Source: Escherichia coli
Lineage (GTDB): Bacteria; Pseudomonadota; Gammaproteobacteria; Enterobacterales; Enterobacteriaceae
Length of the DNA stretch: 64,000 bases
Direction: 5' to 3' (one strand)
NCBI RefSeq assembly: GCF_003334355.1
Contig: NZ_QOWP01000004.1
The notes under the pieces were generated by a model that had not been told where the DNA came from, did not search any database, and saw only the letters and a program-made list of their open reading frames with translations. The first letter of the stretch is position 1; each line of letters starts with the position of its first letter. Below are positions 25,739-34,093 of the stretch, piece after piece. The position numbers and the translations under genes are program-made.

Positions 25739-27214
25739 ATGATTCAGTCAACACGTATTTCCATGGGGTTATTCTTTAAATATTTTTTATCGTTAACGAA
25801 AATTGATCTTGGTCAAAACTATATATCTCTGCCATCAATAAAATCCAGCACTCACATTGCTCTCCTTTTTATGGTTTCTATGGGTACACAAAAATTAAAA
25901 GCTCAAAGCTTTTTTATTTTCAGTTTATTGCTGACGTTAATTTTATTTTGCATTACTACCTTATATAACGAAAACACAAATGTAAAACTCATCCCACAGA
26001 TGAATTACCTGATGGTTGTTGTGGCTTTGTTTTTCCTTAACGCCGTCATTTTTCTTTTCATGTTAATGAAATATTTCACTAACAAACAAATTTTACCAAC
26101 ACTCATTTTAAGCCTTGCATTTTTAAGTGGCCTTATCTATTTAGTTGAAACCATTGTAATTATCCATAAACCAATTAACGGCAGTACACTGATCCAGACA
26201 AAGTCGAATGATGTTTCTATTTTCTATATTTTCCGCCAACTCAGTTTTATTTGTTTAACCTCGCTGGCACTCTTTTGTTATGGAAAAGACAACATCCTTG
26301 ACAACAATAAGAAAAAAACGGGAATCCTGTTGCTGGCGCTGATTCCTTTTTTAGTTTTTCCCCTTCTGGCACACAATCTGAGCAGTTATAACGCTGACTA
26401 TTCTTTGTATGTCGTCGACTACTGTCCTGACAACCATACTGCGACCTGGGGAATCAACTATACAAAAATATTGGTTTGTCTGTGGGCATTTTTACTGTTC
26501 TTTATTATCATGCGTACACGATTAGCCAGCGAACTATGGCCATTAATAGCATTATTATGTCTGGCATCGCTATGCTGCAACTTACTTCTACTGACTCTGG
26601 ATGAGTATAATTACACCATCTGGTACATCAGTCGCGGGATTGAAGTCTCCAGTAAACTGTTTGTTGTGTCTTTTCTGATTTATAACATTTTTCAGGAACT
26701 GCAACTCTCCAGCAAACTGGCAGTTCATGATGTGCTGACCAATATTTATAATCGGCGCTACTTTTTCAACAGCGTAGAGTCATTATTGTCGCGACCTGTT
26801 GTTAAGGACTTCTGTGTCATGCTGGTTGATATTAATCAGTTCAAACGCATCAATGCCCAATGGGGACATCGTGTGGGTGATAAAGTGCTGGTTTCAATTG
26901 TCGATATTATCCAGCAAAGCATCCGCCCCGATGATATTTTAGCGCGACTGGAGGGTGAGGTGTTTGGCTTGCTATTTACCGAACTCAATAGTGCCCAGGC
27001 AAAAATCATTGCGGAACGTATGCGTAAAAATGTCGAACTCCTGACCGGCTTTAGTAACAGATATGATGTTCCTGAACAAATGACCATCAGTATTGGCACG
27101 GTTTTTTCAACGGGTGACACGCGTAATATCTCGCTTGTCATGACGGAAGCAGATAAAGCCTTACGCGAAGCGAAAAGCGAGGGGGGCAACAAAGTGATTA
27201 TTCATCATATTTAA
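25739..27214 (+). CDS. dgcI: GGDEF-domain membrane protein with degenerate active-site motif (EGEVF)
   Basis: 491 aa; N-terminal multi-TM domain; C-terminal GGDEF fold with DVLTNIYNRRYF but RLEGEVFGLLF in place of GGDEF. Confidence 0.9.
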   Translation: MIQSTRISMGLFFKYFLSLTKIDLGQNYISLPSIKSSTHIALLFMVSMGTQKLKAQSFFIFSLLLTLILFCITTLYNENTNVKLIPQMNYLMVVVALFFLNAVIFLFMLMKYFTNKQILPTLILSLAFLSGLIYLVETIVIIHKPINGSTLIQTKSNDVSIFYIFRQLSFICLTSLALFCYGKDNILDNNKKKTGILLLALIPFLVFPLLAHNLSSYNADYSLYVVDYCPDNHTATWGINYTKILVCLWAFLLFFIIMRTRLASELWPLIALLCLASLCCNLLLLTLDEYNYTIWYISRGIEVSSKLFVVSFLIYNIFQELQLSSKLAVHDVLTNIYNRRYFFNSVESLLSRPVVKDFCVMLVDINQFKRINAQWGHRVGDKVLVSIVDIIQQSIRPDDILARLEGEVFGLLFTELNSAQAKIIAERMRKNVELLTGFSNRYDVPEQMTISIGTVFSTGDTRNISLVMTEADKALREAKSEGGNKVIIHHI

Positions 27215-27394
27215 GTGCAAAAATATTCAGAGCCATGCTTTTTGCGTGGCTTTTGCATACAATTTATTACTATTACCCCTAAATTTCCCCTCCCCAGCGG
27301 CGCAGAGATGAGTATAATTAGCGCCCCTGTGCCAGGCCGCAATCGAACTTTATCTGGTTTTCTCGTTTCACTAACCGAAGGAGTGCCATTTATC

Positions 27395-28885
27395 ATGAAA
27401 TTGCACCATAGAATGCTCCGGCATTTTATCGCCGCAAGTGTCATTGTGCTGACATCTTCCTTCCTTATTTTTGAACTTGTCGCCAGCGACAGAGCAATGA
27501 GTGCCTATCTGCGCTATATCGTGCAGAAAGCAGACTCCTCCTTTCTTTATGATAAGTATCAGAATCAGAGTATTGCCGCGCATGTGATGCGCGCTCTCGC
27601 TGCTGAGCAGTCGGAAGTGTCGCCAGAACAGCGGCGCGCCATCTGCGAGGCTTTTGAGTCTGCCAATAATACCCATGGCTTAAACCTGACTGCCCATAAA
27701 TAACCGGGCTTACGCGGCACACTACAAACCGCATCCACTGACTGCGACACAATTGTGGAAGCTGCAGCACTATTACCCGCTTTTGATCAGGCAGTGGAAG
27801 GCAACCGCCACCAGGATGATTACGGTTCAGGTCTTGGGATGGCCGAAGAGAAATTTCACTATTATCTCGATCTCAATGACCGCTATGTCTATTTTTATGA
27901 GCCGGTTAATGTTGAATACTTTGCGATGAATAACTGGTCCTTCCTGCAGTCAGGAAGTATTGGCATCGATCGCAAAGATATTGAAAAGGTATTTACCGGG
28001 CGTACCGTATTGTCGAGCATTTACCAGGATCAGCGTACTAAACAGAACGTGATGAGTTTGCTGACGCCGGTATATGTCGCAGGGCAGCTAAAAGGGATTG
28101 TGCTGCTGGATATTAACAAAAACAATTTGCGGAATATCTTTTACACTCATGACCGCCCTCTCCTCTGGCGTTTTCTCAATGTCACGCTAACCGATACCGA
28201 TTCGGGGCGCGACATTATCATCAACCAGAGCGAAGATAATCTGTTCCAGTATGTCAGTTACGTCCATGACTTACCGGGCGGCATTCGTGTCTCGTTATCC
28301 ATTGATATTCTTTACTTTATCACGTCTTCGTGGAAAAGCGTTCTGTTCTGGATTTTGACGGCGTTAATTTTGCTGAATATGGTGCGGATGCACTTCCGTT
28401 TATACCAAAATGTGTCGCGAGAAAATATTAGTGATGCGATGACTGGACTGTATAATCGCAAAATTTTAACCCCTGAACTGGAGCAGCGGTTGCAGAAACT
28501 GGTGCAAGCCGGTTCTTCGGTGATGTTTATTGCAATTGACATGGACAAGTTAAAGCAAATAAATGACACCCTCGGTCATCAGGAGGGGGATTTAGCGATT
28601 ACGTTATTAGCTCAGGCGATTAAACAATCGATTCGTAAAAGTGATTATGCCATCCGACTCGGTGGCGATGAATTCTGCATCATTCTTGTCGATTCGACGC
28701 CGCAAATTGCAGCACAACTGCCTGAACGTATCGAAAAACGTCTGCAACATATCGCGCCGCAGAAAGAGATTGGCTTCTCTTCCGGTATTTACGCGATGAA
28801 AGAAAACGATACGTTACATGATGCGTATAAAGCTTCCGATGAGCGTTTATATGTCAATAAGCAGAACAAAAACAGCCGTTCATGA
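27395..28885 (+). pseudogene. dgcJ: Diguanylate cyclase yeaJ/dgcJ interrupted by an in-frame TAA at 27701..27703
   Basis: ORFs 27215..27703 and 27755..28885 share one frame separated only by the TAA; ATG 27395 (RBS aaggag) to 28885 is 497 codons, matching the 496 aa K-12 protein with one stop; intact GGDEF (RLGGDEF) lies downstream. Confidence 0.8.
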
Positions 28886-28927
28886 TAACCTTCTGTGGTT
28901 GTTTGCTTGTAATCTCAGGAGCGTGAA

Positions 28928-29431
28928 ATGACTGAAATGGCTAAAGGAAGCGTGACGCATCAGCGGTTAATCGCTTTATTATCACAAGAAGGTGCTAACT
29001 TCCGCGTCGTTACCCATGAAGCGGTAGGTAAATGTGAAGCGGTGTCAGAAATTCGTGGCACCGCTTTAGGCCAGGGAGCTAAGGCACTGGTATGTAAAGT
29101 CAAAGGCAATGGCGTAAATCAACATGTTCTGGCGATCCTCGCAGCCGATCAACAGGCCGATCTGAGCCAACTCGCCAGCCATATAGGCGGATTACGCGCT
29201 TCGTTGGCCAGCCCGGCGGAAGTCGATGAACTCACAGGCTGTGTCTTCGGCGCGATCCCCCCTTTCAGCTTCCATCCAAAACTCAAACTGGTTGCCGACC
29301 CTCTACTCTTCGAACGATTTGATGAAATCGCCTTCAATGCAGGTATGCTGGATAAATCCGTTATTTTGAAAACCGCGGATTATTTGCGCATTGCGCAACC
29401 AGAACTGGTCAATTTCCGCCGCACTGCGTAA
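28928..29431 (+). CDS. yeaK: YbaK/ProX-family aminoacyl-tRNA deacylase-like protein YeaK
   Basis: 167 aa ORF matching YeaK. Confidence 0.9.
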   Translation: MTEMAKGSVTHQRLIALLSQEGANFRVVTHEAVGKCEAVSEIRGTALGQGAKALVCKVKGNGVNQHVLAILAADQQADLSQLASHIGGLRASLASPAEVDELTGCVFGAIPPFSFHPKLKLVADPLLFERFDEIAFNAGMLDKSVILKTADYLRIAQPELVNFRRTA

Positions 29432-29536
29432 CTAGCCTGTCCGTTCAATAAGCAGAACGGACAAAACCAGCACAACAGCAATGGCAAAAAACGATGACGT
29501 GATAATCAGTGTCTCGACGAACATTTGATCGTTCAT
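29432..29536 (-). CDS. yoaI: Small membrane protein YoaI (34 aa)
   Basis: Minus-strand ATG at 29536; translation [34 protein letters not shown]; below the ORF-track size cutoff. Confidence 0.7.
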
Positions 29537-29705
29537 AGCATGCCCCCGGGAGATAGCTGTTTTCACGTTATTGTTAGCGTGCACAAATGGCAGTTTGATG
29601 ACAGTTCGCCTGATTTTTTATGCAAAAAACGTAAAGATTTTCTACTTCCTTCCTGCAGCAAGCGTAAAGTAAGCAGGCTTATTATTTTTTGGCAAGGAAA
29701 CCACG

Positions 29706-33068: not shown

Positions 33069-34093
33069 GTGTCAGATCAGATTATCGCCCGCGTCTCGCA
33101 ATCCCTTGCCAAAGAACAGTCACTGGAAAGTCTGGTCCGACAGCTTCTGGAGATGCTGGAAATGGTCACTGATATGGAATCAACCTACCTGACCAAAGTG
33201 GATGTCGAAGCGCGCCTGCAGCATATTATGTTTGCCCGTAACAGCCAGAAAATGCACATCCCGGAGAATTTTACCGTCTCGTGGGATTACTCGTTATGCA
33301 AACGCGCCATTGATGAAAACTGCTTTTTCAGCGATGAAGTCCCCGACCGTTGGGGTGACTGTATTGCGGCACGCAATCTTGGCATCACCACATTTCTGAG
33401 CACGCCAATTCACTTACCGGATGGATCATTCTATGGCACGCTTTGCGCCGCCAGCAGTGAGAAGCGCCAGTGGAGTGAACGCGCGGAACAGGTTTTACAG
33501 TTATTCGCCGGACTGATTGCACAATATATTCAAAAAGAGGCACTGGTTGAACAGCTGCGCGAAGCCAATGCTGCGCTGATTGCGCAATCGTATACCGACT
33601 CGTTAACCGGCTACCGAATCGGCGGGCGATTTTTGAAAATCTGACGACACTGTTTTCCCTCGCCCGGCATCTTAACCATAAGATAATGATCGCGTTTATC
33701 GATCTGGATAACTTCAAATTAATCAATGATCGTTTTGGTCATAATAGTGGCGATCTGTTTCTCATTCAGGTTGGCGAGCGCCTTAATACGCTCCAGCAAA
33801 ATGGCGAAGTTATTGGTCGTCTCGGCGGTGATGAGTTTTTAGTTGTTTCACTAAACAACGAGAATGCGGATATTTCGTCGCTGCGAGAACGCATTCAGCA
33901 GCAAATACGTGGAGAATATCACTTAGGTGATGTTGATTTGTATTATCCCGGTGCCAGTCTTGGCATAGTAGAAGTCGATCCTGAAACAACCGATGCAGAC
34001 AGTGCCCTGCATGCTGCCGATATTGCGATGTATCAGGAGAAAAAACACAAACAGAAAACACCTTTTGTCGCGCATCCAGCGCTACATTCCTGA
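33069..34093 (+). pseudogene. dgcP: GAF-GGDEF diguanylate cyclase yeaP/dgcP disrupted by a 1-nt deletion (-1 frameshift) near 33611..33613
   Basis: ORF 32940..33644 (GAF part, GTG start 33069) and ORF 33686..34093 (GGDEF part with RLGGDEF) are in different frames; adding one nt to ggctaccg (giving ggcTTAccg) restores SLTGLPNRRAIFENL and a 341 aa product. Confidence 0.8.

Follow-up and report, generated by a model that had tools for sequence, protein, structure and literature searches.

A lineage-private ochre codon very probably makes the diguanylate cyclase gene dgcJ a pseudogene in an Escherichia coli strain

The locus at 27395-28885 of the window (the whole 64,000-nt stretch of Escherichia coli contig NZ_QOWP01000004.1, assembly GCF_003334355.1, that was analysed here) raises the question of whether two adjacent open reading frames represent two genes, one gene read across an internal stop codon, one gene inactivated by mutation, or an error in the assembly. 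The list of ORFs shows that 27215..27703 and 27755..28885 share a frame and are separated solely by the TAA at 27701..27703, as had been pointed out in a first reading made from the sequence alone (the sequence-only reading), in which the pair was interpreted as dgcJ (yeaJ) split by a nonsense codon. The GTG at 27215 is the first start past the cdgI stop and merely the mechanical start of the upstream ORF, the frame of interest beginning at ATG 27395, which is the annotated dgcJ start in BL21(DE3), MLI023K1, PSS-12 and K-12 MG1655. The features of the region are as follows:

27378..27383, + strand: Shine-Dalgarno sequence AAGGAG of dgcJ, 11 nt 5' of ATG 27395, read directly
27395..28885, + strand: dgcJ (yeaJ) frame, 1491 nt (496 codons plus stop), broken at codon 103 and very probably now a pseudogene
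27395..27700, + strand: residual N-terminal ORF, 102 codons, covering a short cytoplasmic tail, the first transmembrane segment (TM1) and ~72 N-terminal residues of the periplasmic GAPES1 domain
27701..27703, + strand: premature ochre stop TAA (Tyr103, TAC to TAA), followed by a C (TAAC)
27755..28885, + strand: downstream in-frame ORF, GTG start, 376 codons, covering the rest of GAPES1, the second transmembrane segment (TM2) and the GGDEF domain; probably untranslated
28928..29431, + strand: yeaK (mischarged aminoacyl-tRNA deacylase), intact as judged from synteny and an identical protein, 42 nt 3' of dgcJ

The identity of the gene was confirmed by both sequence and position. The window shared 1490 of 1491 nt with the intact dgcJ CDS of BL21(DE3) (WP_000766131.1) and 1483 of 1491 nt with b1786 of MG1655, and the gene order yeaH-cdgI-dgcJ-yeaK-yoaI-yeaL was the same in the window, BL21, MLI023K1, PSS-12 and MG1655, so that cdgI-dgcJ-yeaK synteny and near-identity to an annotated dgcJ together mark the locus as its ortholog. 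Read through the TAA from ATG 27395, the frame comprises 496 sense codons plus the stop codon at 28883-28885, in agreement with the annotated CDSs and with the DgcJ length given in the sequence-only reading, and the ribosome-binding site proposed for this ATG was borne out by the AAGGAG motif and an anti-SD duplex of -8.3 kcal/mol, a value beyond the 1st percentile of random window positions. Pfam analysis, run on BL21 DgcJ, which is the same as the window frame except at codon 103, gave matches to GAPES1 (residues 31-304, E 8e-151) and GGDEF (residues 346-494, E 8e-40), and hydropathy placed TM1 at residues ~11-30 and TM2 at ~305-335. The window frame has this architecture of TM1, periplasmic GAPES1, TM2 and GGDEF with an intact GGDEF motif, and the single uninterrupted ORF expected for a full-length enzyme is missing, an in-frame TAA standing at codon 103.

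The sole difference from BL21(DE3) dgcJ is a C to A transversion that affects the last base of codon 103 (27703) and creates the stop. Since 1490 of 1491 bases are those of an intact gene and the single difference makes a stop codon, the interruption is not due to chance. Alignment to the MG1655 gene, the check proposed in the sequence-only reading, identified the original codon as TAC (Tyr), and a stop shared with the K-12 gene, which would have contradicted that reading, was thus not found; the eight positions at which MG1655 and the window differ in dgcJ are made up of the stop at Y103, six synonymous changes and A372S. Codon 103 was also TAC in BL21(DE3), MLI023K1, PSS-12 and six divergent lineages chosen to span the diversity of the species, so that the stop occurs where relatives and the species at large carry a sense codon, as expected for a nonsense pseudogene. 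Sequence comparison thus makes it very probable that a recent, genuine and lineage-private nonsense mutation (27703 C to A, Tyr103 to TAA, hereafter Y103*) turned dgcJ into a pseudogene.

At the protein level, translation from ATG 27395 would end after 102 residues, leaving TM1 and roughly the first quarter of the periplasmic, dCache-like GAPES1 sensor, whereas the remaining sensor sequence, TM2 and the catalytic GGDEF domain are all encoded 3' of the stop. The truncation after about 102 residues of the N-terminal sensor region anticipated from the sequence was found to be exactly 102 residues, falling within GAPES1 (31-304), and the motifs DAMTGLYNRK and RLGGDEF were both located in the downstream ORF, as had been stated for the GGDEF domain.

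Retention of some function by dgcJ, either by restart at GTG 27755 or ATG 27839 giving a truncated GGDEF protein or by low-level read-through of the UAA, is improbable. The 376-codon downstream ORF, with its GGDEF motif, shows no damage, and a precedent exists in Shigella flexneri, in which dgcJ itself was lost through a truncating deletion rather than a nonsense mutation, while four other diguanylate cyclase (DGC) genes carry nonsense mutations and three of these (dgcE, dgcQ and dgcN, mutated upstream of GGDEF) raise c-di-GMP when expressed and yield several bands (PMC11327459). The S. flexneri genes dgcE, dgcQ, dgcN and dgcM resemble the present case in having a stop in the sensor region and an undamaged GGDEF part downstream, but they differ in that a Met codon for restart follows the stop after only a few codons (stop 56 and Met 59; stop 177 and Met 180) and in that product and c-di-GMP were obtained on over-expression from a strong plasmid promoter (PMC11327459). 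No in-frame start follows the stop this closely here: the nearest, GTG 27755, lies 51 nt (17 codons) past the stop, has no SD and gives an anti-SD value of +0.4 kcal/mol, compared with -8.3 kcal/mol at the true start, and the best in-frame starts before TM2 reach only -4.1 (ATG 27839) and -4.2 kcal/mol where random positions average -1.7. A protein restarted downstream of the stop would be missing TM1, leaving its sensor remnant unable to reach the periplasm, and even point mutations at the periplasmic ligand site are enough to phenocopy the knockout (PMC8669472). Restart at GTG 27755, which the sequence-only reading had left open, thus stays reasonable in principle because of the Shigella precedent, but the adjacent start codon of that precedent is missing, and the distance of 51 nt, the missing SD and the loss of TM1 from the product argue against this particular site.

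UAA is recognised by both release factors and is the least leaky of the stop codons, and the window contains no tRNA genes at all and hence no local suppressor tRNA, all of which argues against residual function by read-through. On the other side, 101 of 161 Salmonella pseudogenes were found to be translated at a low level, and C, the base that follows the TAA here (TAA-C), was the commonest base beside Salmonella read-through stops, but read-through in that study concerned mostly UAG, not UAA (PMC9122581).

The distribution of Y103* was examined with short probes in complete E. coli genomes. A 41-nt TAA probe centred on the mutant base, designed so that megablast seeding is impossible unless the A is present, gave no match in 5,426 complete genomes, whereas the same probe with the wild-type C (TAC), used as a positive control, matched 4,104 genomes. 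Codon 104 of dgcJ (27704-27706) is itself polymorphic, being CCG in most genomes, CCT (synonymous) in, for example, 14EC020 and CAG (P104Q) in, for example, ESC53083 and 18AR0845, which is why the wild-type probe matched just 4,104 of the 5,426; the genomes that it missed vary close by, in codon 104 or at 27694. TAA probes built on the codon-104 and 27694 backgrounds also gave no match in the 5,426 complete genomes, and 83-nt and 301-nt probes found no 100% match in ~5,400 genomes, the best matches always having one mismatch. By strict probes on three local backgrounds, none of the 5,426 complete E. coli genomes has Y103*, which was seen only in this window and in SRR10357312-like contigs of the Logan assemblies. 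A common TAC/TAT polymorphism at codon 103, considered as a cause of contig breaks at nt 308, was rejected, as a TAT probe matched no genome.

The absence of the allele from the 5,426 complete genomes would also be expected if the A at 27703 had arisen as a consensus error in sequencing or assembly and dgcJ were in reality intact in the strain, an explanation that is very unlikely in view of the read-based assemblies. Because Logan contigs are assembled from raw reads, they show, if indirectly, that the reads carry the A at 27703: contig SRR10357312_50 (99.7 kb) encodes a 102-aa product and a stop followed by a 376-aa ORF, and the SRR10357312 contig matches the window without a single difference in compared spans of 6.3 kb and 21,131 bp. 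The identical sequence includes the TAA and four of the six other SNPs that set the window apart from its nearest complete genomes, the remaining two lying outside the span. Recovery of the same base in this separate de Bruijn-graph assembly, in a setting of 21 kb of identity, makes an assembly error unlikely, with the proviso that the window may derive from run SRR10357312, in which case both assemblies would represent one sampling of the organism. About 3-4 more long Logan contigs carry a similar pair of 102-aa and 376-aa genes. The change itself is a base substitution outside any homopolymer (CATAAATA[C>A]CCGGG), which is not typical of consensus errors, and the surroundings show no indel noise, with 15 SNPs and no indels between the window and PSS-12 over 47 kb apart from an IS5 in PSS-12. 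Among the 51 annotated genes compared (window 3478-52326), dgcJ alone has an internal stop specific to the window, the other genes checked being intact or like those of the relatives, and the window assembly is otherwise clean.

The number of collection blocks listing the 102-aa product (72) was also considered as proof of spread of the allele and was rejected, since 9 of 10 places listed were contig ends at nt 306-308 and an arbitrary 95-aa truncation, taken as a control, was listed in 46 blocks; only long contigs holding both ORFs are counted here.

That the TAA is a conserved programmed recoding site, of the selenocysteine type or with regulated read-through, has a negligible probability, as nothing beyond the two ORFs sharing a frame speaks for it, whereas the conserved stop to be expected of such a site (UGA with a SECIS element, or a conserved leaky context) is replaced by a private UAA, neither UGA (Sec) nor UAG (Pyl), at a codon that is TAC in every other genome examined, and dgcJ is annotated as a single uninterrupted CDS in all references. 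Programmed frameshifting was likewise rejected, the downstream ORF being in frame 0.

With Y103* taken as a genuine nonsense mutation, the expected phenotype can be derived from the published genetics of DgcJ. DgcJ is the single DGC of twelve that is specifically needed for infection by phage N4; it binds NfrB, a glycosyltransferase whose MshEN domain binds c-di-GMP and which makes the NGR glycan that serves as the first receptor of N4, and a catalytically dead DgcJ fails to complement, with DgcQ acting as a partial backup (PMC8669469, PMC8669472). The requirement for dgcJ was found independently in Tn-seq and CRISPRi screens for N4 (PMC7553319), and deletion of the gene gives N4 resistance (PMC8669472, PMC8669469, PMC7553319). 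Mutation of the periplasmic ligand-site residues Y210, D212 or D239 phenocopies the knockout, and a dgcJ::IS1 insertion accounts for the N4 resistance of MG1655 CGSC 7740 (PMC8669472). The effect of a dgcJ null on N4 depends on the background, with a severe plating defect in W3110, an intermediate one in MG1655 and an EOP of 0.8 in BW25113 (PMC8669472, PMC8669469, PMC7553319). On these grounds, Y103* would remove the DgcJ-specific local c-di-GMP input to NfrB, little or no NGR surface glycan would then be made, and partial to strong resistance to N4-like phages would be expected, with DgcQ left as a backup. The GAPES1 domains of Salmonella YeaJ and of its EHEC homologue bind AI-2, which stimulates c-di-GMP synthesis (PMC9637222), and by homology AI-2-responsive c-di-GMP synthesis may be lost as well. 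Most likely, Y103* would deprive phage N4 of the signal on which its infection depends.

The mutants in which these effects were described, namely dgcJ::IS1 in K-12 MG1655 CGSC 7740 and deletion and transposon mutants (PMC8669472, PMC8669469, PMC7553319), are likewise hit upstream of GGDEF, and the same outcome (no NfrB activation, no NGR glycan and less N4 infection) would be expected here. They differ in being IS insertions or engineered deletions with an established phenotype, whereas the present lesion is a single-base ochre mutation in a non-K-12 lineage with a predicted one. Premature stops and IS insertions in dgcJ have already been noted in natural and laboratory strains (PMC8669472), and the following natural lesions were recorded in the present analysis:

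Complete genomes: IS1, IS5 and IS903B insertions in dgcJ
OY754357.1: IS903B at nt 319-328
SRR7299277: E88* (GAG>TAG)
ERZ28575897: L96* (TTA>TGA)
SRR19552939: L96* (TTA>TAA)
SRR21483009: +C frameshift at nt 277
SRR33769xxx runs and SRR32375302: +A frameshift at nt 232, among many split genes, which may be a long-read error

These lesions are, like Y103*, independent knockouts that map to the first ~110 codons of an identical or near-identical allele, but their positions and mutation types differ and none of them is Y103*. An apparent dgcJ lesion in L019 was rejected, being a scaffold gap (run of N) and no mutation. Y103* is therefore a new allele of a type of event that, together with the consequences of dgcJ loss, has already been described, which makes it a useful annotation note rather than a discovery.

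It is conceivable, though doubtful, that Y103* is an adaptive loss of the DgcJ-NfrB-NGR-glycan pathway selected by N4-like phages in a naturally circulating commensal clone (about four sequencing runs) and not a neutral lesion. It would then belong to a recurrent series of independent knockouts (E88*, L96* twice, frameshifts and the IS1, IS5 and IS903B insertions), with dgcJ as a habitual target of phage-driven loss. Nothing was found in a search of the literature on run SRR10357312 for whether the strain was natural or phage-selected. In itself, Y103* is an ordinary, strain-private gene knockout. In terms of annotation, the two ORFs belong merged as one dgcJ pseudogene with an internal stop and not as two genes. 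The strain is predicted to have lost the one DGC with a specific role in turning on the N4 receptor glycan, a DGC that in related enterobacteria also responds to AI-2. This information is relevant to the prediction of phage host range and to the choice of N4-like phages for therapy.

Downstream of dgcJ, the 1.18 kb of mRNA that would now be untranslated may permit Rho-dependent termination and thereby lower the expression of yeaK. The untranslated part includes a C-rich, G-poor stretch (~28104-28230) with a C/G ratio of 2.3, at the 99th percentile of the window. No terminator-like site was detected between dgcJ and yeaK, and the promoter/terminator scan of 27100-29600 gave counts no higher than those of shuffled sequences and is hence uninformative about a yeaK promoter of its own or a dgcJ terminator.

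The best complete-genome matches over 25 kb were MLI023K1, PSS-12, OW1E2, E41 and HS. The window belongs to a phylogroup-A-like lineage near PSS-12, MLI023K1 and HS and is not K-12, its dgcJ differing from that of MG1655 at the eight positions given above. Besides Y103*, six SNPs distinguish the window from both nearest complete genomes (6376, 14274, 19793, 31953, 34837 and 37963), of which ansA T55M, ydjK A437V and yeaD T197N are nonsynonymous and those in nimT, yoaG and dmlA synonymous; the four at 19793, 31953, 34837 and 37963 fall within the Logan SRR10357312 contig and are common to it.

A second diguanylate cyclase gene, dgcP (33069-34093, + strand), is, like dgcJ, inactivated in this strain, in this case by a 1-nt deletion near 33608 in a GGG run at codon 181, the resulting frameshift giving a 191-aa GAF ORF and a 135-aa GGDEF ORF. 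The deletion is common to MLI023K1 and PSS-12, in which the gene is annotated as 'frameshifted', whereas Y103* is private, and because it is shared with the nearest complete genomes the loss of dgcP is considered older and lineage-wide. Taken together, the two lesions show a stepwise erosion of the c-di-GMP network of the lineage.

Other differences among the close relatives were also apparent. In MLI023K1, ydjH (- strand, 11964 in the window) carries E107* and is annotated as a pseudogene, the codon being intact in the window and in PSS-12, and this is another private nonsense mutation in the same clade. The region yeaX-rnd (41614-42991) shows ~40 SNPs relative to MLI023K1 and not relative to PSS-12, and looks like a recombination tract. 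Lastly, in the yeaQ-yoaG intergenic region (34708), a poly-T run is one T longer in the window than in MLI023K1 and equal to that of PSS-12, this being the only indel in the ~50 kb compared.
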